A DNA stretch of 64,000 nucleotides, from contig CAVSGO010000007.1 of the NCBI GenBank assembly GCA_963727525.1, positions 1,632,001 to 1,696,000 of the forward strand, in the 5' to 3' direction. Shown in pieces: positions 29,717-54,260 of this stretch. Within the stretch, counting starts at the first letter, position 1. Each line of letters starts with the position of its first letter. Source of the DNA: an uncultured bacterium (GTDB lineage Bacteria; Krumholzibacteriota; Krumholzibacteriia; LZORAL124-64-63). The position numbers were made by a program, and so were the translations under genes. Under the pieces are notes generated by a model. It worked only from the letters and a program-made list of their open reading frames with translations, searched no databases and was not told the origin of the DNA.

Positions 29717-31147
29717 TCAGCGCACGAGCATTGCTCGCCTCGTGACGACGACTCCGTCCGCCCGCATCCGCACCAGGTAAACGCCCCCCGGCAACGCGCG
29801 CCCGCCAGCATCCGTCCCATCCCAGCGCAGCGTGTGCCGCCCCGCCGCTTCCACCCTCCCCGCGGCGAGCGTGCGCACGAGCCGTCCCGCGACGTCGTAT
29901 ACGGCGACCGTCAGAGCAGCCTCGCGCGGCAGATCGCACGCGACATCGGTCTGCGGGTTGAACGGGTTAGGCCAGGGCCCATCGAGCCGCGGCAGCGCCG
30001 GCGTCGCGGGCACCGACACGGAGTCGTCGCGCTGCTGCACAACCCTGACCAGGACAAACTCGGCCGGTGCGATTGGCGCGAAGCCCATGAGGATGATCGT
30101 GCGTCCCTCGAGAATGTCCTGCTGGGTCATCGTCTCCAGGCCGCACTGCACGAAGTAGGCCTGCGACGGCGTCGCCCCCTGGAACCAGCCGGCGACGAAG
30201 AGGGCGTAAAGAAAGTCCTCGACATCGCTGCGCAGGTGCAGCCACAGGGCTGCATCGTTCGGTTCCTGCAAGCACCACGCGGTGCCCGCCAGAACCGAGT
30301 GTCCGATGGTCAGGGCCGTACGTCGCACCGACACGTAACGCCATTCGGGATCGCTGGCGAGCGTGCGCGCACCCCACACGCGGATCCCCTGCCCCGGGAT
30401 GTCGCGGATCGTGTTGATCCCCAGCGGCGTGAGCTGCTCCAGCTCGAGGGTCGACACGTCGTAGCTCACGGCGGTGGCCGAGGTGACCGCGCCCACCGGT
30501 GCCTCGGGCGGCGCCGTGCGCGCCATCACGCCGGCGACGAAGCCGCTCGGCGGCAACAGCAGCGACGAGCCCGCCGGCACGGCCAGCACCCACGGAAAGT
30601 AGAGCGTCGCAAACCCGGTGTCCGTGACGAGCCCGGCACGCTGCGCGACCACGGCTGACGGATCCGTGGTCGATGCCGGATCGAGAATGGCCAGGCGATC
30701 GCCCATTTCGGTGCACAGGGCGACCATCGCGGCTTGCACCGCCGCCGAGGTGACGCCGGGCACGGCCACGAACGCCGCGGCATCCCCGTCGCGCAACGCT
30801 TGCAGCCCTGTGCGCTGTCCGGGCCCGCCATCGCTGCCGATGACGGAGGCGTCGTCGTCCCCGGCCACGCGCACGACGACGGCATGCGTACCGCCGTTGA
30901 CGAAGAACGCGGCCACGGACGGGGCAAGATACGGATTGGCGAGGCCGTCGGTCCCGGCGCCGAAGATCGCGGCGAATCCGGCATAACTGGCCACGGAAAC
31001 CGGCGCGTCGAGCGGGCCCTGCTGCGCCTCGCCCACGAAGGCGGCTGCGCGACCGTCCACGAGTGCGATCGGGGTCGCGCCCACCGCGCTCGCCAGGAGC
31101 GCGAGCGTCACCGCCAGAACGCCACCGCGCCCGGCCCAGTGCACCAT
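29717..31147 (-). CDS. Contractile phage tail sheath-family protein with N-terminal signal peptide and C-terminal FlgD-Ig (T9SS-like) sorting domain
   Basis: AAFVG..QGP, FFVNGG..VVRV, RLAILD, LYFPW, PPSGFVAG, GINTIR, VWGARTL, WRYVSVRR, EPND..LW, AYFVQCG, APIAPAEFV; tail PWPNPFNP..VYDVAGRLVRTL..WDG..GVY. Confidence 0.85.
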   Translation of the reverse strand: MVHWAGRGGVLAVTLALLASAVGATPIALVDGRAAAFVGEAQQGPLDAPVSVASYAGFAAIFGAGTDGLANPYLAPSVAAFFVNGGTHAVVVRVAGDDDASVIGSDGGPGQRTGLQALRDGDAAAFVAVPGVTSAAVQAAMVALCTEMGDRLAILDPASTTDPSAVVAQRAGLVTDTGFATLYFPWVLAVPAGSSLLLPPSGFVAGVMARTAPPEAPVGAVTSATAVSYDVSTLELEQLTPLGINTIRDIPGQGIRVWGARTLASDPEWRYVSVRRTALTIGHSVLAGTAWCLQEPNDAALWLHLRSDVEDFLYALFVAGWFQGATPSQAYFVQCGLETMTQQDILEGRTIILMGFAPIAPAEFVLVRVVQQRDDSVSVPATPALPRLDGPWPNPFNPQTDVACDLPREAALTVAVYDVAGRLVRTLAAGRVEAAGRHTLRWDGTDAGGRALPGGVYLVRMRADGVVVTRRAMLVR

Positions 31148-31742
31148 GAGAAACCTCCCGCCATCCGCCGCCTTACCAGCATTTCGGGCCCATCCGCGCC
31201 CGGAGAGCCTAGCACATTCCTCCGCTTTCGACCATCCGCAGGCGGAACCGGGGGACACGACGACGGACGACAGCCTGGATCTTCGGCAAGCGCAGTATCC
31301 CCTCCTGGCCCAACTCGCCGACCAGAATACTTGCCAGCTCCTGGAGCTGTTCGGCGGACTGCCCGACAGCACCTTCACCGCGTTGCAGCGCGCCGGGTAC
31401 GTGAAGTGGCAGGTCTGCGATCTCGACGCCCGCCGACGCCACATGCTCGAAGATCTCAACCGCGTCAACATCGACATGGCCACGCAGCAGGGCGTGCCGG
31501 AGAATCCGGCGTATTCGATCGAGGCGTTCTCGCGCGCGGAGACGGGCTTCGCGATCGTCTCCATTCCCGAGACTCAGCAGAAGGTGGCGAGCTGGTTCGT
31601 GCTGGGGCCCGAGTTGCCCGACCCGACGTGGGTGACGGTGGTCAACACGCGCGCCACCGCCACGCCGGAATACTTCCGCGCGCATCTGCGGGAGCTGCCA
31701 TCGCTGCGGGCCTTGCCCGCGAGCGGTGTGCCCGCCGGCTAG
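31146..31742 (+). CDS. Hypothetical protein (true start uncertain, probably downstream of 31146)
   Basis: Open frame with coding-like GC3 bias from about 31260; no recognised motif. Confidence 0.45.
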   Translation: MRNLPPSAALPAFRAHPRPESLAHSSAFDHPQAEPGDTTTDDSLDLRQAQYPLLAQLADQNTCQLLELFGGLPDSTFTALQRAGYVKWQVCDLDARRRHMLEDLNRVNIDMATQQGVPENPAYSIEAFSRAETGFAIVSIPETQQKVASWFVLGPELPDPTWVTVVNTRATATPEYFRAHLRELPSLRALPASGVPAG

Positions 31743-33244
31743 CTTCCGCTCGACCCGCCCGATTGCGGTGTCGTCCCTGGCGGTGTCGTCCCTGGCGGCG
31801 GGTCGGGACACCCGTCACTGTCTTGATCGCCGTCGTAGTCCTCCGGCTCGTTCGGACACTGGTCGTTGACGTCGTCGATGCCGTCGAGGTCGTTGTCGGG
31901 ATCGGGACAGCCATCGCCATCCTCGAAACCGTCGATGTCTTCCGGGCGGTCCGGGCAGAGATCGTCCTCGTCGGCGATCCCGTCGCCATCGCTGTCGACG
32001 AAGGTGTCGGGGCAGCCATCAGTGTCCTTGTAGCCGTCGAAATCCTCGGGCTCGTCGGGACACTGGTCGAGCCGGTCCACGATGCCGTCGCCGTCGTTGT
32101 CGGGATCGGGACAGCCGTCGGCGTCCTGGTAGCCATCGATGTCCTCGGCCTCGTCGGGACACTGATCGAAGGTGTCGAACACGCCGTCCTGATCGTTGTC
32201 GACGTCCGGACAACCGTCGTCGTCCCGGAAACCGTCGCGATCCTCGGGCAGGCCGGGGCAAGCGTCTCTGCGGTCGGGAATGCCGTCGTGATCGCCGTCG
32301 TGCCCGCCAAGTGAGAACTGGCGACTGATCGCGAGGCTGGAGACGAGTTTGGGGATCTCGGGATCATAGTCGGTGGCGTAGTCGTTTTTCTGCAAGGGCA
32401 CCAGGTAGTTCAGCTCGACGCCCCACCCCTCGGCCAGCCCCCACCGCACGCCGGCGCCGACGGCCGTGTCATTCTCGATGACATCCACGAACCGCGTGTC
32501 CACGAACTGCGCGGCCGTGTATTCCACCCACAGGATCGTCGACGCCTTGCGGAACTCGAAACCGCCGCCCCACAGCTTGTAGTCGTTGCCACCGTCGCCG
32601 CCCACGCTCGCGGCGGCCGGATAGCGAGGCCACCAGGGCTGGGGCCAGAACGTCGGGTTCACACCGTAACCCTCGTCCTCGTTGCGATTCCACCGGTGCC
32701 CGTAGCTGGCGAAGATCCGCATCTGCGGCAACTTCGACTCCGTCCACACGCGCACGCCGAGGCTCACGCCGGCATGGGGCGACACGACGCCCTCGCCCAG
32801 TTCCCGCGCGGCCAGCGGCAGGCTGACGCCGCCGAAGAGCGTGGCCCCCAACCAGGACGGCAGGCCGGGCAGCGAATACGTCACCTCGGAGCGTCCGTCG
32901 CCGAGGCCGCTGCCGGACGGCTCGGCAGGCGACGGCCAGCGGCTCCATTGGCGGTAAGGTTGCGCATAGCGCACCGTCAAGCCGGGCCAGGGGCCGTACT
33001 CGGCGCTCAGGACCCACTCCCACACCGTCGGTTCGTAGATCCCCTCGCTGCCCTTGATCACCTCCGGCTTGTAGAGACTCGGACCGAGGCTGACGGTCAG
33101 CAGGCCATCGGGAATCGCGAACGCCGACACGAGCCGGGTGCGCTGCATCGAATCCTGCGGCACGCCGGGCAACCCGCGCCCGAAGGCCACCCCCGCAGCG
33201 AGCGCGAACACGCTTGCGATCGCAATGCCCGGTCTGCGCGTCAA
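31739..33244 (-). CDS. Exported beta-barrel-like protein with thrombospondin type-3 (Ca-binding) repeats
   Basis: Signal-like N-terminus, aromatic-rich beta strands, ~5 DxDxDGxxDxxDxCP..PEDxDG..DxDGCP repeats; TTGA overlap with upstream gene. Confidence 0.75.
   Translation of the reverse strand: MTRRPGIAIASVFALAAGVAFGRGLPGVPQDSMQRTRLVSAFAIPDGLLTVSLGPSLYKPEVIKGSEGIYEPTVWEWVLSAEYGPWPGLTVRYAQPYRQWSRWPSPAEPSGSGLGDGRSEVTYSLPGLPSWLGATLFGGVSLPLAARELGEGVVSPHAGVSLGVRVWTESKLPQMRIFASYGHRWNRNEDEGYGVNPTFWPQPWWPRYPAAASVGGDGGNDYKLWGGGFEFRKASTILWVEYTAAQFVDTRFVDVIENDTAVGAGVRWGLAEGWGVELNYLVPLQKNDYATDYDPEIPKLVSSLAISRQFSLGGHDGDHDGIPDRRDACPGLPEDRDGFRDDDGCPDVDNDQDGVFDTFDQCPDEAEDIDGYQDADGCPDPDNDGDGIVDRLDQCPDEPEDFDGYKDTDGCPDTFVDSDGDGIADEDDLCPDRPEDIDGFEDGDGCPDPDNDLDGIDDVNDQCPNEPEDYDGDQDSDGCPDPPPGTTPPGTTPQSGGSSGS
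31795..32305 (-). repeat. Intragenic TSP3-type repeats (~100 bp units)
   Basis: Recurrent tcgggaca/gccgtcg..tcgttgtc units encoding DGCPDPDND. Confidence 0.75.
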
Positions 33245-33582
33245 GCAGAGGCCTCGCCGCCGGCGGCATCGGGTGTATCCGTTGTCGCCGCGGATGGCGG
33301 CGGCGGCGCCTGGTCCTTCTTCACCTCGTCGAGGTAGTTCATCTGCAGGTCCATGACCGCGGTGTCGAGGATGCGCAGCACGCCCGCGGGCGTGTCTGTC
33401 CGGCATTTCACCTTGAGCATCTCGAGCATGTCGATCGTGGCGCGCGCCGTCGTCAGGTCGCGCTCTATCTCGCCCGACATCTCGTTCTTGATCTTGCCGA
33501 GCTGCTGCATCGCGGCCATCTGCAGGCTCATGACCAGGCCGAGCAGGATATGGTCGTGCTTGCTCAGGGTTTCATCGTTCAT
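33241..33582 (-). CDS. DUF1844 family protein
   Basis: AAMQQLGKIKN, ARATIDMLEMLKVKC, LQMNY; GGAGG RBS. Confidence 0.8.
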   Translation of the reverse strand: MNDETLSKHDHILLGLVMSLQMAAMQQLGKIKNEMSGEIERDLTTARATIDMLEMLKVKCRTDTPAGVLRILDTAVMDLQMNYLDEVKKDQAPPPPSAATTDTPDAAGGEASA

Positions 33583-48508: not shown

Positions 48509-49887
48509 GGCAAGGCCTCCGACGAGAATCGTTGCAGCGTGGCACCGGGATAGTAGTGGGCGAGGATCGCGCGCATGTCCTGGCCGGCCGCCGCTCGGGC
48601 CAGCGCTCCGTTCTGGCACATGCCCACGCCGTGGCCGTACCCGCGCCCGTGCACCGCGACCGCGCGCGGCAAACCGGCCGCGTCGCGCGTCACCTCGAGA
48701 TCGAAGAGGGCGCTGCGCAGGATCGTCGGATGGCCGGACGCCGGCGTCAGCACCCAGCGCACGCGGTCGCCACGCACATGGTAGGTGCCCGCCGTGGTGA
48801 CGATGTCGAGGCAGGCGATGCGGCCGCTCGCCGTCCTCTCCACGATGCGCAGGTCACGCAGAGAACCCGGTGACTGGGCGCCGGGACTTCGGGGCACGGG
48901 CGTGAACACGTTGCCTGCCCAGGTCGCGCGATCTGGGCGTTCCATATACGCCACGTAGTCGGGCAGGGTGGACTGCAGGATCCGATCGAGCTGGACGGCC
49001 GTCCAGGACTCGGTCCATGCGGCGTGCGCCCCCGTGGCGCAGAACGGACGCCCATCGGGCCCCGGGCCATCGTCGCTCACCGCGAAGCAGGCATCGCCAG
49101 GCCGTGACCACACGCCATCGGGCACCGCGCTGCGCCCCCCGCAAGAAGCGTGGAAGTAGGCCGGGATCGGCGCGTCGTCCTCCATCAGGACCAGGCCGGC
49201 CGAGCGCGCCACGGCCACGGTGGCGAGGGAATCCTCCCCCGCGACACCCTGGTACACCTGATCGCGCACATCGCCATAGAGATCGAAGCCGCGCGTCACG
49301 CGCGTCCCCAGGTGGGATACGGCGTAGGTGCGGGCAGCCACGGCCTGCGCTTCCACGGCCGCGAGCCGGCTGCGATCAGGCCGGCCGATCTCCGCGGGCA
49401 CCACGCCCAGCAGATACGCCTCCAGGTCCACCTCGTCTACCAGGGTCACGCCATCGGCGCCTGGTGTGGGCAACGCGGCGAATGTGCCGCGCCAGGCGCG
49501 GCCGTTCCAGCGCAACGGTGGCGATGATGAGATCGGCACGAGCACGAGCAGCATGGTCTGCCCACCGTTCCTGCCGCAGGCCCAGCGGACGTTGAGGCCG
49601 CTACGCCGGACGGTGACGTCTTGCCCCGCCGCGACCGTGAGTACGAGCTTGCGGGTCGCGCCGGTGCGCAGCTCGCACGGGGCGGGGGCGGTTACGGTCA
49701 CGAGGTCGCTGCCCTCGACGAGCCCCACGCGTACGATGACGCCCGCGGCTGTGACGGCCGCGGGCGTCGCATCGGTCTCCACCGCCGGCGCGGTCACGCG
49801 CTTCGGCGCACACCCGGCCAGCGTGCCGGCGAGCGCCAGCATGACGCCACCCGCAAAGCCCAGCATGCGCCGGCGGGCACGCCTCAC
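48505..49887 (-). CDS. SpoIID/LytB domain lipoprotein (peptidoglycan lytic enzyme)
   Basis: Lipobox LAGC; EAYLLGVVPAE, AQAVAARTYA, QVYQG, GRGYGHGVGMCQNGA, ILAHYYPG. Confidence 0.9.
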   Translation of the reverse strand: MRRARRRMLGFAGGVMLALAGTLAGCAPKRVTAPAVETDATPAAVTAAGVIVRVGLVEGSDLVTVTAPAPCELRTGATRKLVLTVAAGQDVTVRRSGLNVRWACGRNGGQTMLLVLVPISSSPPLRWNGRAWRGTFAALPTPGADGVTLVDEVDLEAYLLGVVPAEIGRPDRSRLAAVEAQAVAARTYAVSHLGTRVTRGFDLYGDVRDQVYQGVAGEDSLATVAVARSAGLVLMEDDAPIPAYFHASCGGRSAVPDGVWSRPGDACFAVSDDGPGPDGRPFCATGAHAAWTESWTAVQLDRILQSTLPDYVAYMERPDRATWAGNVFTPVPRSPGAQSPGSLRDLRIVERTASGRIACLDIVTTAGTYHVRGDRVRWVLTPASGHPTILRSALFDLEVTRDAAGLPRAVAVHGRGYGHGVGMCQNGALARAAAGQDMRAILAHYYPGATLQRFSSEALP

Positions 49888-52800
49888 CGCATGACCACCA
49901 GCCGCTGCATGTCGCTGCGGGCGTTGCCGGCCGCACCATCCACCTGCACCCGGTACAGATATACGCCATTGGCCAGTCGATCACCCTCGCTGTCGCGCCC
50001 ATCCCACGGCACCACGACCTCGGCCCCCGCGCCCACCGGGAACGCCAAATCCACGATCTGGCGGCCGGCCACGGTGTACACCAGCAGCCGACCCTGGCCG
50101 CCACCCAGGTTGGTGCGGAACAGGATACTGGTCGTATCGCGCATCGGATTCGGATAGTTGATCAGCTCCCCGATCGTGACCTCGCCGCCGGTGCCCTCGC
50201 CGGCCTCGAGTACATAGCTCGTGGCGTAGCCATCGATCGTCACGACCACGCTGCGGGGCGGCGCATGCCCCGCGATCGCGTCGGCCGTGAACGACAGGTT
50301 CACGTCCGTACTCTTGGCGATCTGCACCTGCACGTCGCTGAGCACGAGTCCGTCGCCCGTCACCGAGATCTGGCTCTGGTCCGTGAGGTTGGCCGCCGTC
50401 GTCAGCGTGGCATTGATGGCGACGGGCGTCAGAGGCGCAAAGATGAACGTCGCCGGATCGATCACGTCGCCGCTCGCCACGCTCATGAACTCCGCCGTCT
50501 GCGGCACGTGGAAGGTGTAGATCACGTGATCGTCGGTGGGCAGCCGATCGGCCGTGTCGCGCACGTGCACGAAGATGTCGTGCTCGAACGGCCGCACGGG
50601 CAGCGTCAGCTCGTATTGCACGATCTGCCGGTTCGGCACGTCGGGGCTCGTCTGCTGCACCACCGAGCCGGTGAGATCGGCGCCCGTGGAGTCGAGCACC
50701 TGCACACCCGCGATGCCTGCCTCGTCCCGCGCCTCGAGTGTCACGGTGCGGGTGTTCGAGGCATCGGTGGCCACCAGCTCGGTCTCCAGTTCGAGGTGCT
50801 CGCCGCCCAGCGTCGCCTCCACGTACGGCGCCCCGCAGTCGAGCACCATGAGCGGATCACCCAGCAGCGTGTACTGCGAGACCATGGCGCGATATGTGAA
50901 GCTGTTCACGCTCGCCAGCGCATCGGCCTCCGACGCCCACATCAGCTCGCCCAGCACCCAGCGAGACGCCGCCGGCTCGCCATGCACGCTCACCGTCGGC
51001 GGCCGGATCATCCACCGGTTGAGCGTCCACTCGCTGAACTCCTCGTTCGGCCCCAGGTACTCGTAACCCGAGCTCCCGTAGGCGGCATAGGCCCCCGCCG
51101 CCGTGAAACCGAGGAACTTCTCGCAAAGGGAACCCTGAATCGGCGTGTCCGACACTTCCTCATCGACGGCCTGGGCGAAGTCCGCGAGGTGGCAGCCCAT
51201 CCCGAAGTACATCCACGGCTTGCCGAAATTGGTGAGATCGCCCACGTCCGTACGCGAGGCATCGCCGCGGCGATCGTCCTTGAACCAGTTCTCGTGCGCC
51301 ATGAGGAACATGTTGCCGTGGCCCTGGTAGTGCGCGATCAGGCCGCCCGCGCTGAGCGACGTCTTCAGCGGCACGACCGCGGACTGTTCGCAGTGACGAA
51401 TCCCTGCCGACCACAAGTAGTCACCGTTGTCCCAGGGCACCGGGTAGAGGTCTTGCATGAACGCACGCAGCATGAGCGTGTCGGCGACGAGCGGTACCAT
51501 ACCGCCGTTGTTGCGCCAGTAATTCGCCAGGCTGTCGCGCTCGCTGATCTCGAACTGCAGCTCGTTGGGCTGGTAAGACTCCCGGAACCCCGAGTCGCCG
51601 TAGTTGCCGAGCGAGAAGCAGTCGTCGGCGAAGAACAGCGCCCGCTTCTTCCACGTCTCGCCGGCCACGTTCGCTTCGGCCTGGAAGGTCTTGTCGATCA
51701 TGGTGTTGAGCTGCGTGACCGAGTCGCAGGGGAACCGGCCCACATAGAGCTCGAACGGCGTCGTCACACCCGACGGGAAGTTGGCATCGGTGGCGTTCGG
51801 GTAGGCGTACCATTTATCGGACGCGAGCACCTCCGGCTTGTAGAGAACGCCGGCGTCCTGCACGTGATGATGGGTCGGCACGTAGTCGGTCGCATAGGGA
51901 CGCCCAGCCGCGGTCACGCCCAGCTCCCGGGCATTCTCGTTGGCGTCGCCGATCAGCATCATCGCGTACGTGAGCCAGCGCGGACTTTCCAGAGCGTGGT
52001 TCGCCAGCCGCTTGATCGCCCACGCGTTCTTGAGGCCGCCGCTGTACCAGTCGTAGACGTCCTGCGGTGCAACGACCTGGATGGTCAGCCCCTCGACGCC
52101 GGCCCGTTCTTCCCGGTGATCGATCCAGCGCTGGGCTGCCTCGCGGAACTTCGGATGGACGACCACCACGAGGCCGGCCGTGCTCTCCGCGAGCTGGGTG
52201 GGGATCACCGGGTCGGTCACCGCCACCGCCGTGCTATAGCTGATGTCCGCGACACCGCCGGCGTCGGTGCCGGTCACGGCGTAATATTTACGCCGGCCGC
52301 TAGTCTGATCGATCTGTATTGACAGCCGCGTCTGACTTCCATCGGCCACGAGATTGCTGCGGGTGAGGCTGATCTCCGCGGGCTGGCGGGGTTCGGTCAC
52401 GTCCAGGAGCGTGATGGCATCGGTCGCAAATCCGGTCACCTCCACATCATTCACGGCCGCCGGTTCGCCACCATCGAAGAGCAGACGACCACCGGGTGCG
52501 ACGTAGGCCGCATCGTATGCGAGTTCCACATATGCCAGGTACGCCGACAGGGATCCCGATGGATTCCGGGTGATGCGCAGCTTGAGCGACGTCTCGCTCA
52601 GGGCAGCCGGCGGTATCGCCATCGTCACGGGCGTCACGTAGTTGGACGTCGCCGTGTAGCTGGGCAAAGCGTAGTCCGTGGACGCGCCTCGCAGCATGAA
52701 ATCCAGTACCCGATCCGACGTCGCGTACGTGGCCACGCCGGACGTGAGCGTGGCGCCGGTCTGCCCCGCGATCGGAGACCACAGATTCATCGTCACGTCG

Positions 52801-54260
52801 ACCAGATCGGCGACGTTCGTGTTGTAGTAGCCACGCACGGTCGTGATGGACGGAACGAATTCGCGATAGGCCTGTGCTTCCTGGAGATGATCCGTGCGGC
52901 GGTACGAGGCCAGGGGATTGCCGCCCGACGGCGGCAGGCTGGTCGTCGCCATGCGGGCCCAGGATCCGCCCGCATCCGGATCGGCGAGCTGGAGCCAGTA
53001 GACGTTGAAGTTGTTGCTCGCCTCGAGAGGGTCGCCGCAGTCGGCGAGCGGGTAGGTCGTGCCGCCGACGGTGTAGTTGAAGGCGCCGTCGTCGCGCAAG
53101 CGCAGCCCCCAGAACAGGAAGTAGTCGTCGTTCTCGAAAGCGCCGCCGTCGCCCACCATGAGGATGGGCACCTCCACCTCCACGTAGGGCGCCGCCGTGT
53201 CGCTGGCCGGGTCGTCGAGGTCGGCCACGTAGCGGCGCTGGTACAGCCGGACCTGGCTCTCCTGGATCGGGTCGCTGGGCAACAGGCCACTGCTGCGCAT
53301 GTCGCTCGCCCGCACGCGGTAGAGCTGCGTGCGCGGCACCGGCAGGCGCACCTCGGGATAGCCCAGGGGCGTGCCCTTCGCGCCGCCGCGCAGGGCCTTC
53401 AGGCCGCTCGGCACGTCGCCGGCCCTCGCCCCGGCGCCGCGAGCCGCCGCTTCCGTGGGCCACGACGCGAGTTGCCCGCCGTTGAGGAACATGTAGGAAA
53501 ACCGGTCGTCGCCGCGCGTGGTGAGCTTGCGCTTCGCCGCGTCGGGCAACGCGGCCTTTGCCACAGCGGGATCGGGCTCGAAGCGGACGCGCCAGGTGCC
53601 ACCGGTCAACACGCGCGTGGCGTGCCCGGACGCGTCCACCTGGACCGGCTGGATCACGTAGGACACCACGCGATGGCCGCGCCACCAGCCGATCTCGCCG
53701 AGACTCACGGCGGCGCCGCTGGCGGGCGCGGTCTTGGCGGCCGCCTCCAGATCCGCGCGCACCGTCGCCGGCAGTGTGTCCACATCGATCGCCTTGCCCG
53801 GGCCGGGCAGCTCCTCGCTCGCGAAAACGTCCTCGGAGTCGGGATCGCCCTCGAGCCGCGGGATCGGTTCCAGCGCCAGTGCGTGGGCCGGAGCCGGCGT
53901 CCACGATTCCTGCACCGCCTCGAGCCGGGGCGTCGTACCAGGCGGCAGCACGAGCCAACCCCCGCGCCGGGGCGTCTTCTCCTCGCCCGGCAAGCCCGCG
54001 TCCATGAAGCCCGCCAGGCCGGCCGCCCAGCCGGGCTGGCCATCCCGCGCGGGTCCGGCCGGATGCCAGATCGCCGCGGGAAGCGTCAGGCTGAACTGCA
54101 CGGCGTCACGCGTGCTCACACCCACCGCGGGATCACCCGTGGGGCCGGCGATGGCAACAGCAGCGGCGACGGCGATGAGGGTCAGAAAGGCGCTGCGGAA
54201 AGCTAGACCGATCCACAGCCGCGTCGGGTTGGGGCGGACGGGCATGATCGCGTGCTCCAT
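49884..54260 (-). CDS. Large C25-family cysteine peptidase (PorU/gingipain-like) with C-terminal FlgD-Ig sorting domain
   Basis: Signal peptide; VYDWYSGG, LIGDA, SDKWY, VGRFPC, YQGHG (His), MGC (Cys), YTLLGDP; NYPNP..VYTVAGR..WDGRD..LANGVYLY tail. Confidence 0.85.
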   Translation of the reverse strand: MEHAIMPVRPNPTRLWIGLAFRSAFLTLIAVAAAVAIAGPTGDPAVGVSTRDAVQFSLTLPAAIWHPAGPARDGQPGWAAGLAGFMDAGLPGEEKTPRRGGWLVLPPGTTPRLEAVQESWTPAPAHALALEPIPRLEGDPDSEDVFASEELPGPGKAIDVDTLPATVRADLEAAAKTAPASGAAVSLGEIGWWRGHRVVSYVIQPVQVDASGHATRVLTGGTWRVRFEPDPAVAKAALPDAAKRKLTTRGDDRFSYMFLNGGQLASWPTEAAARGAGARAGDVPSGLKALRGGAKGTPLGYPEVRLPVPRTQLYRVRASDMRSSGLLPSDPIQESQVRLYQRRYVADLDDPASDTAAPYVEVEVPILMVGDGGAFENDDYFLFWGLRLRDDGAFNYTVGGTTYPLADCGDPLEASNNFNVYWLQLADPDAGGSWARMATTSLPPSGGNPLASYRRTDHLQEAQAYREFVPSITTVRGYYNTNVADLVDVTMNLWSPIAGQTGATLTSGVATYATSDRVLDFMLRGASTDYALPSYTATSNYVTPVTMAIPPAALSETSLKLRITRNPSGSLSAYLAYVELAYDAAYVAPGGRLLFDGGEPAAVNDVEVTGFATDAITLLDVTEPRQPAEISLTRSNLVADGSQTRLSIQIDQTSGRRKYYAVTGTDAGGVADISYSTAVAVTDPVIPTQLAESTAGLVVVVHPKFREAAQRWIDHREERAGVEGLTIQVVAPQDVYDWYSGGLKNAWAIKRLANHALESPRWLTYAMMLIGDANENARELGVTAAGRPYATDYVPTHHHVQDAGVLYKPEVLASDKWYAYPNATDANFPSGVTTPFELYVGRFPCDSVTQLNTMIDKTFQAEANVAGETWKKRALFFADDCFSLGNYGDSGFRESYQPNELQFEISERDSLANYWRNNGGMVPLVADTLMLRAFMQDLYPVPWDNGDYLWSAGIRHCEQSAVVPLKTSLSAGGLIAHYQGHGNMFLMAHENWFKDDRRGDASRTDVGDLTNFGKPWMYFGMGCHLADFAQAVDEEVSDTPIQGSLCEKFLGFTAAGAYAAYGSSGYEYLGPNEEFSEWTLNRWMIRPPTVSVHGEPAASRWVLGELMWASEADALASVNSFTYRAMVSQYTLLGDPLMVLDCGAPYVEATLGGEHLELETELVATDASNTRTVTLEARDEAGIAGVQVLDSTGADLTGSVVQQTSPDVPNRQIVQYELTLPVRPFEHDIFVHVRDTADRLPTDDHVIYTFHVPQTAEFMSVASGDVIDPATFIFAPLTPVAINATLTTAANLTDQSQISVTGDGLVLSDVQVQIAKSTDVNLSFTADAIAGHAPPRSVVVTIDGYATSYVLEAGEGTGGEVTIGELINYPNPMRDTTSILFRTNLGGGQGRLLVYTVAGRQIVDLAFPVGAGAEVVVPWDGRDSEGDRLANGVYLYRVQVDGAAGNARSDMQRLVVMR

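Follow-up and report, generated by a model that had tools for sequence, protein, structure and literature searches.

The sheath-like gene and its core fold

The DNA analysed here, from now on referred to as the window, is a stretch of 64,000 nucleotides (contig CAVSGO010000007.1 of assembly GCA_963727525.1, positions 1,632,001 to 1,696,000 of the forward strand) from an uncultured soil/sediment bacterial lineage. Its reverse strand encodes a 476-amino-acid protein, from now on referred to as the sheath-like protein, in which the core of a contractile sheath is preceded by a predicted signal peptide and followed by a FlgD_ig-type domain. The features of the gene, in window coordinates, are:

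29717..31147 (-): sheath-like gene, 476-amino-acid protein
31154..31159 (-): Shine-Dalgarno-like GGGAGG, identified by reading the sequence, 6 nt before the ATG
31076..31147 (-): putative Sec-type signal peptide MVHWAGRGGVLAVTLALLASAVGA, residues 1-24, putative cleavage before TPI
30023..31075 (-): contractile-sheath core, domains I/II only, residues 25-375 (PF04984, PF17482, PHROG_23, AlphaFold2, Foldseek, phmmer)
30032..30058 (-): last core β-strand, C-terminal handshake-type, residues 364-372, conserved as PAEFVVLRIVQQR in alignment A1
29975..30022 (-): variable, low-confidence linker, residues 376-391 (predicted local distance difference test, pLDDT, below 50 at 376-382; variable in alignment A1)
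29720..29974 (-): C-terminal FlgD_ig-type β-sandwich, residues 392-476 (PF13860), predicted sorting domain of the lineage

The reading frame ending at 29717 stays open as far as 31564, and the ATG at 31147 is proposed as its start. This start is credible because the Shine-Dalgarno-like sequence lies 6 nt upstream, because the extension is not protein-like and because all homologues start at the equivalent point in alignment A1, which comprises 22 sequences picked for long contigs and spread. A coding extension up to 31564, which likewise lacks a counterpart among the homologues, was rejected.

The first-pass annotation had assigned a contractile-sheath core to about residues 25-375, and the protein is a genuine sheath-fold protein. 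Searches with sheath profiles, one of the checks proposed there, gave a match to PF04984 (Phage_sheath_1) of 43.8 bits against a cut-off of 31.4. PF17482 scored marginally under its cut-off (25.9 against 26.9 bits) and is precomputed as present in most homologues; the match to PF22671 was weak. The PHROG_23 'tail sheath' profile covers residues 22-374 with an E-value of 3.4e-44, and phmmer against the PDB recovered the contractile injection system (CIS) sheath of Streptomyces coelicolor with an E-value of 2.8e-64. A second proposed check, an AlphaFold monomer, was carried out with AlphaFold2 on the 22-row alignment and yielded a mean pLDDT of 87.5, with most of the core above 90, low confidence limited to the signal peptide and linker residues 376-382, and a strand (E365-372) at the end of the core. 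Only CIS or phage sheaths are found among the top Foldseek matches of this model in the PDB, with 9gts_2A as the best (E-value 1.2e-29, template modelling score to target 0.83, 39% identity). The S. coelicolor CIS chains (35-40% identity) are followed by the sheaths of Halogeometricum, Anabaena, Algoriphagus, the Photorhabdus virulence cassette (PVC), the antifeeding prophage (AFP) and R-pyocin. Profile searches with Pfam and NCBIfam detected no ligand-binding or catalytic family in the protein, and a search of the ESM Atlas returned no usable match.

Predicted export signals and the missing N-terminal arm

The N-terminus of the sheath-like protein has the layout of a signal peptide, with a basic n-region, a hydrophobic core and V-G-A at positions -3 to -1. 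Signal peptides were assigned by our own heuristic, which considers the mean Kyte-Doolittle value of the most hydrophobic 10-mer, acidic residues before this 10-mer and the residue at -1. All 21 relatives with an N-terminus reach a mean value of at least 1.81, none carries an acidic residue before the 10-mer and 17 of the 21 have Ala at -1; four of the 21 rows begin straight in the hydrophobic core, their gene start probably having been called late. The putative mature N-terminus is conserved across the 22 rows of alignment A1 as A/TPI.L.D..TAGFVG (slash, predicted cleavage site). Further, 80 genome loci were compared, consisting of 17 loci of the clade to which the sheath-like protein belongs, from now on referred to as the signal peptide clade, and 63 other sheath loci. 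Upstream of the AGFVG motif, the hydrophobic maximum is 2.1-3.5 in the 13 clade loci that could be scored and does not exceed 1.8 in the other 63. A signal peptide is thus strongly suggested by sequence, in line with the cleavable-looking one noted at first pass.

The same region should hold the PGVY-type arm, which had been reported as apparently replaced. This is borne out by the locus comparison, where an arm just upstream of AGFVG is found in 0/17 clade loci compared with 51/63 other sheath loci, five of the 12 remaining ones being cut by contig ends and four, from Acidimicrobiia or Actinomycetota, starting at MATSTAGFVG. The latter four (L031, L033, L036 and L037) are short sheath homologues with neither arm nor signal peptide, and tblastn detected no gp19-type tube in their flanks. 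The phmmer alignment agrees with the loss of the arm: query residues 21-114 correspond to residues 15-109 of the S. coelicolor sheath and query residues 134-371 to residues 279-524 of 534. Since query residue 21 aligns with residue 15, the first ~14 canonical residues appear to be replaced by the signal peptide, and since the step from query residue 114 to 134 spans residues 109 to 279, a large outer insertion has no counterpart in the sheath-like protein.

According to the available parts of two structural studies, sheath assembly rests on conserved β-strand intercalations ('handshakes') of the N- and C-terminal regions, which persist through contraction, and an attachment helix in sheath domain I contacts the tube (PMC12546770, PMC8894135). 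The N-terminal strand is gone from the sheath-like protein, which therefore argues against a canonical interwoven sheath. Functional contractile sheaths carry a PGVY(V/I)EE strand-exchange arm, and here PGVYVEE is replaced by the predicted signal peptide. Functional sheaths also assemble in the cytoplasm and bear no secretion signal, whereas the sheath-like protein has a conserved N-terminus resembling a signal peptide.

At the other end of the protein, PF13860 (FlgD_ig) matches residues 403-464 with 45.9 bits against a cut-off of 27. The flagellar hook-capping protein FlgD can be excluded, only the Ig-like part being matched: no FlgD N-terminal family is found among the Pfam matches of the protein, and NCBIfam FlgD equivalogs score at most 36 bits against cut-offs of 230-383. 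The C-terminal part of the PorU model can also be aligned to this domain. A profile built from the C-terminal domain of the family matched 225 stop-to-stop open reading frames (ORFs) of the genome, ending no more than 12 residues from the stop in 220 of them, and PF13860 gave at least 150 genome matches over its cut-off. Based on this terminal position and abundance, the domain is the predicted general C-terminal sorting tag of the organism, with the sheath-like protein being one cargo among a couple of hundred. Matching components of a type IX secretion system (T9SS) are encoded in the same genome, namely PorU (436.5 bits against a cut-off of 420) and SprA, a 2280-amino-acid ORF with 480 bits summed over pieces against a cut-off of 200.

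A further ORF of the window, at 49884-54260 (-), encodes 1458 amino acids, has a PorU-like region of the C25-peptidase type (94 bits, NF033707 positions 187-538) and shares the C-terminal sorting domain. Its appearance is that of a PorU paralogue or a protease cargo.

Relatives, distribution and genomic context

A word-indexed search identified 2415 relatives of the sheath-like protein among 8000 scored candidates. Of the best 120 clusters (47-62% identity), 106 combine PF13860 with sheath domains according to the precomputed Pfam column, and where a cluster has a source name, as few do, it is Candidatus Eisenbacteria or Krumholzibacteriia. Alignment A1 contains 43 invariant columns across its 22 sequences, together with the conserved hydrophobic N-terminus. 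The architecture thus belongs to a conserved family, and an assembly chimera, which had been named as a possible source of error, is refuted.

In a maximum-likelihood tree of 76 rows, from which 10 cut or short rows were omitted, all 19 rows bearing a signal peptide form one group with a Shimodaira-Hasegawa-like approximate likelihood ratio test (SH-aLRT) support of 94. Sixteen of these carry FlgD_ig and three have C-termini that are dockerin-like by eye. The group lies within a 99-supported set together with the CIS sheaths of Mycobacterium and Rhodococcus and one Acidobacteriota sheath. Relatives from Planctomycetota combine a signal peptide and sheath core with a different C-terminal tail. 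In L028, this tail matches Dockerin_1 with 30.4 bits against a cut-off of 22.9. The C-terminus of L027 has no Pfam match at E ≤ 5 and P0121 shows nothing beyond the sheath domains in Pfam at E ≤ 0.001, 'dockerin-like' being for these two a reading of DxNxDGxxDxSD repeats by eye. All-against-all profile searches showed a C-terminal hydrophobic anchor in P0122 and, in P0124, thrombospondin-type-3-like repeats and no visible signal peptide. On this basis, the signal peptide clade appears to swap its extracellular anchor by lineage.

A second tree, built with more rows, contains a 98-supported set of 19 rows, made up of 12 FlgD_ig rows, four rows that are dockerin-like by eye, P0122, P0158 and P0167, and places P0175, P0255 and P0185 outside of it. 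Export of sheath-fold proteins seems to have arisen more than once, since forms with predicted signal peptides fall in different places of the tree. The five sheath homologues P0158, P0167, P0175, P0185 and P0255 bear a signal peptide or lipobox, and several keep an arm or arm-like segment: the PGVY arm is kept by P0175, whose source name is Armatimonadota, and P0185, an arm-like segment by P0158 and P0167. A metagenome scan for arm-keeping sheaths with signal peptides (alignment A2) returned canonical sheaths at all 80 loci; where the N-terminus is present, their open frames start ~6-9 residues before PGVY.

Conservation was compared between 32 rows of the signal peptide group and 57 canonical rows. 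Sixty-five positions are conserved in both, and the signal peptide group departs from the canonical rows at 27 positions where conservation among the latter is at least 85%. Residues conserved specifically in this group include G219, T350 and R373. The FlgD_ig-tailed rows of alignment A1 are without four residues present in P0121 at the 212-219 loop.

A full-length orthologue is encoded in 8/121 sampled genomes of the phylum, own genome included, the other matches being the C-terminal domain alone or other sheaths. A PF06841 tube is found in nine of the 121 genomes, specifically, in 3/8 carriers and 6/113 non-carriers of the sheath-like gene, a comparison of small numbers and related genomes; 5/8 carriers are without it. 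The sheath-like gene is independent of a gp19-type tube. Two sheath-like matches with 41% identity were seen in genomes of the same class (G001 C19:42053-42646 and G004 C5:98825-99421). Both contain one in-frame TAG, which could mean that the gene is broken, that there are two genes or that the codon is recoded, and both have a gp19-like tube directly downstream.

The genome (4.66 Mb, 8 contigs, 96.7% complete) contains a single PF04984 match, the sheath-like gene itself. No tube or gp25-like gene is found in the window, and of the whole-genome matches to PF04984, PF04965 and PF06841 only the sheath-like gene falls inside it. When the flanks of the compared loci were searched by tblastn with the gp19-like tube of this genome, 0/17 clade loci (four of them shorter than 5 kb) had such a tube compared with 41/63 other sheath loci. 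Clustering of our own ORF calls by all-against-all BLAST over the 17 loci and the window found the sheath family to be the only one common to at least three loci. Functional sheaths are encoded with tube, baseplate and spike; here the PF06841 and PF04965 matches lie elsewhere in the genome. The gp25-like PF04965 match is TssE of a type VI secretion system (T6SS) cluster at C7:1473961-1495104, ~150 kb upstream of the sheath-like gene and outside the window, in which TssA, TssB, TssC, Hcp, TssE, TssF, ClpV, VgrG, TssM, TssL and TssK were recognized by eye. The single PF06841 gp19-like tube (locus L003, contig C5:636166-636609 (-), E-value 1.5e-43) has no signal peptide and sits between genes read as ispD and radA, followed by a 134-amino-acid ORF, with no sheath or baseplate nearby. 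It was rejected as a partner of the sheath-like protein given its lack of a signal peptide, its location on another contig and the five carrier genomes without a tube. The description of the sheath as an orphan at first pass therefore stands as far as phage- and CIS-type parts in the window are concerned, and is qualified by the complete T6SS ~150 kb away and the lone tube on another contig.

Within the window, the sheath-like gene is convergent with a Ser/Thr kinase-tetratricopeptide repeat (TPR) gene and divergent from an ORF without family match. The kinase gene (26650-29712 (+), 1020 amino acids with long TPR arrays) ends 4 nt from the stop of the sheath-like gene. It is preceded, with a 4-nt overlap, by a gene for an extracytoplasmic function (ECF) sigma factor (26090-26653 (+), PF07638, E-value 3.6e-54); ORF clustering over the 17 loci and the window showed that this pair is not kept beside orthologues of the sheath-like gene. 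An ORF of 555 amino acids at 31739-33406 (-) contains many acidic repeats of the DxDGxxDxxDxCP type, thrombospondin-type-3-like by eye, and has no Pfam match at E ≤ 0.001 and no PADLOC match. At 24351-25985 (+), a 544-amino-acid ORF matches the Pfam family Thiol_cytolysin over residues 97-400 (E-value 1.7e-25, 90 bits). This is the family of cholesterol-dependent cytolysins, which is unusual in an uncultured bacterium of the Fibrobacteres-Chlorobi-Bacteroidetes (FCB) group.

Proposed role and comparison with known systems

We propose that a sheath-fold protein was removed from its contractile-injection context and turned into an exported protein. With a probability of roughly 0.6, the sheath-like protein is a non-contractile surface or extracellular protein exported by a Sec- and T9SS-type route, self-assembly being left open. 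The signal peptide would direct it via Sec to the periplasm, where the core would fold, and the FlgD_ig-type domain would hand it to a T9SS-type outer-membrane route consisting of the SprA translocon, the PorU sortase and a PorV-like shuttle, with the cell surface or the medium as the end point. There it would most likely have a structural or binding function in the envelope, without contracting, and could self-associate by donating its retained C-terminal β-strand to a neighbouring subunit. The fold, the conserved architecture, the loss of the arm, the lack of linked tube genes and the presence of sorting machinery and of many ORFs with the same tag are direct results; that the protein is exported, loses its C-terminal domain, is located at the surface, self-associates and has a given biological role is what we infer. 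Export is the firmest of the predicted parts and very probable, and loss of the canonical contractile role is only slightly less so: with the arm gone, many canonical residues replaced and no cognate tube or baseplate, the protein would not be able to act as a canonical sheath. Self-assembly is doubtful. The first-pass proposal of a domesticated, exported sheath is well supported by the conserved putative signal peptide and sorting domain, the lack of a linked tube and the presence of PorU and SprA in the genome. None of the results demonstrates the particular functions suggested there, namely polysheath fibres, a surface lattice, a phage decoy or a scaffold. A scan with PADLOC defence models gave no match for the sheath-like protein or for two neighbours, so that a decoy or defence role has no support.

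Several observations weigh against the proposed exported surface protein. Export is a prediction, with the signal peptide called only by the heuristic described above. Both Por_Secre_tail models stay below threshold (PF18962 17 against 27 bits, TIGR04183 21.1 against 23 bits). The barrel gene directly after PorU is PorV-like at 91 bits, below the cut-off of 250. GldK is sub-threshold only, and GldL and GldM have no match in the genome, their models being Bacteroidota-trained, having rung in no control genome and so constituting weak evidence either way. The FlgD-Ig/T9SS-type sorting tail of the first-pass annotation thus holds with respect to FlgD_ig, PorU, SprA and the 225 ORFs, and falls short with respect to TIGR04183, PF18962, GldL and GldM. 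The genes around the sheath-like gene give no functional hint. Further, the gene is patchy and accessory and not a core component of the envelope. Since it is accessory (8/121 sampled genomes), any role it has is likely to be ecological and not housekeeping, for example in adhesion, in protection or in interactions with phages or other cells. With regard to self-association, the modelled dimer described below scores only just over the mark of the tool (0.44 against 0.42) with our own alignment, is reciprocal and closed and does not form a chain, and its score may reflect memory of solved sheath assemblies.

The strongest rival explanation, though unlikely by comparison with the proposed reading, shares the predicted export and differs only on self-association: the sheath-like protein could act as a monomer, surface-located or secreted, that never polymerises and whose sheath core serves only as a stable scaffold to bind a target (polysaccharide, another cell or a phage). 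The missing arm, which would be needed for a canonical interwoven mesh, and the replacement of many residues conserved in canonical sheaths are consistent with such a monomer, as are the patchy, accessory distribution and the alternative C-terminal modules (one Pfam dockerin, the others Ca-binding-type repeats by eye), which are typical of secreted binding proteins and enzymes. However, 65 positions are conserved in both the signal peptide group and canonical sheaths, no ligand-binding or catalytic family was detected, and the region of the C-terminal strand has clade-specific conserved residues (T350, R373) and is not relaxed. A two-copy model of residues 25-385, built in three runs on our own alignment, also argues against a strict monomer. 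It reached an ipSAE (interaction prediction score from aligned errors) of 0.44 compared with 0.00 for the best of three controls, passing the mark of 0.42 that is reached by 20/30 proteins solved as pairs and 1/23 solved as single chains. Contacts agree between runs by at least 91%, and the partner pLDDT is 87 or higher. In both copies, strand 364-373 is paired with strand 348-358 of the partner chain, in the same register as the hairpin formed within the chain in the monomer model. The modelled pairing resembles a retained C-terminal handshake strand and is to be taken as a hint, not as a demonstration.

A more specific form of self-assembly, which we regard as improbable, is a tube-less, non-contractile 'exo-sheath' assembled at the cell surface. 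The sorting domain, located right after the handshake strand, would keep periplasmic monomers assembly-incompetent until its removal by a PorU-type sortase after export frees the strand. Strand donation would then link subunits on the outer membrane, giving rings, filaments or a lattice, and relatives with dockerin-like C-termini or a hydrophobic anchor would represent the same invention with other anchors. A comparable logic is found in type V pili, which assemble by protease-triggered strand exchange.

There is little to suggest that the sheath-like protein belongs to a contractile or tubular device, outside the cell or in the periplasm, that has escaped recognition because its remaining components are too divergent or too scattered across the genome. 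Homologues with a signal peptide that keep PGVY (P0175, P0185) or an arm-like segment (P0158, P0167) would fit such a device, as would the lone gp19-like tube in the genome and the higher share of PF06841 tubes in carriers (3/8 compared with 6/113 in non-carriers, small numbers from related genomes). However, the signal peptide clade itself lacks the arm, 5/8 carrier genomes show no PF06841 tube, the lone tube has no signal peptide and lies on another contig between ispD and radA, and no neighbour family is common to at least three of the 17 loci and the window. Lastly, an ordinary cytoplasmic sheath or decaying CIS remnant, whose 'signal peptide' would stem from a wrongly called start or from a stretch that is hydrophobic by chance, is strongly disfavoured in spite of the solitary gene and the marginal PF17482 score, given that the signal-peptide-like segment, TPI.L.D..AGFVG and the C-terminal domain are kept over at least 100 clusters (47-62% identity) with intact frames, that 43 columns are invariant across 22 aligned sequences, and that a Shine-Dalgarno-like sequence precedes the ATG while no alternative start gives a PGVY arm.

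To our knowledge, assembly of all characterised contractile sheaths (phage tails, tailocins, extracellular and cytoplasmic CISs and T6SSs) takes place in the cytoplasm, with a tube at the centre. A literature search at the level of abstracts, covering sources other than subscription journals and supplements, found no exported or CTD-bearing sheath (CTD, C-terminal domain) and no T9SS cargo with a sheath core. If the proposed export is true, the clade would represent the first case found of a sheath module exapted for a job outside the cell, and T9SS-like sorting in uncultured phyla of the FCB group would gain an unexpected type of cargo. The clade would also provide a practical means of telling elements of the sheath fold required for polymerisation apart from those required for contraction. 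The annotation 'phage tail sheath protein FI' in these phyla would then not indicate prophages or injection systems. An exo-sheath, if true, would mean that part of a phage tail has given rise to a new class of polymer in the envelope.

Known systems share individual features with the sheath-like protein. The TssB/TssC sheath of T6SSs has a homologous inner-domain fold. The T6SS of this genome has its own two-protein TssB/TssC sheath, whereas the sheath-like protein is of the single-chain phage/CIS type and predicted to be exported. T9SS cargo proteins of the type A CTD (TIGR04183 / PF18962) likewise combine a Sec signal peptide with a C-terminal β-sandwich of ~80 amino acids, and T9SSs also export the self-assembling S-layer proteins of Tannerella forsythia. 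Unlike in this cargo, the C-terminal domain of the sheath-like protein scores as FlgD_ig and not as Por_Secre_tail, the organism is outside Bacteroidota and GldL/GldM were not detected. The short sheaths Pvc2, Afp2 and R-pyocin PA0622 have a similar minimal core (~350 amino acids) of the same fold at only 22-27% identity; their assembly is cytoplasmic and proceeds around a tube on a baseplate, whereas in the sheath-like protein the place of the N-terminal handshake strand is taken by the putative signal peptide. The closest solved relatives are the cytoplasmic CIS sheath of S. coelicolor (PDB 8bky, 8bl4, 9gts and 9gtp) and other actinobacterial CIS sheaths, which share the same domain I/II core at 35-40% identity. 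These S. coelicolor-type sheaths possess a PGVY arm and a large outer insertion (chain residues ~110-278) and have neither a signal peptide nor a C-terminal extension. The sheath-like protein differs on each point, lacking the arm, the insertion and a linked tube and carrying a predicted signal peptide and sorting domain instead.

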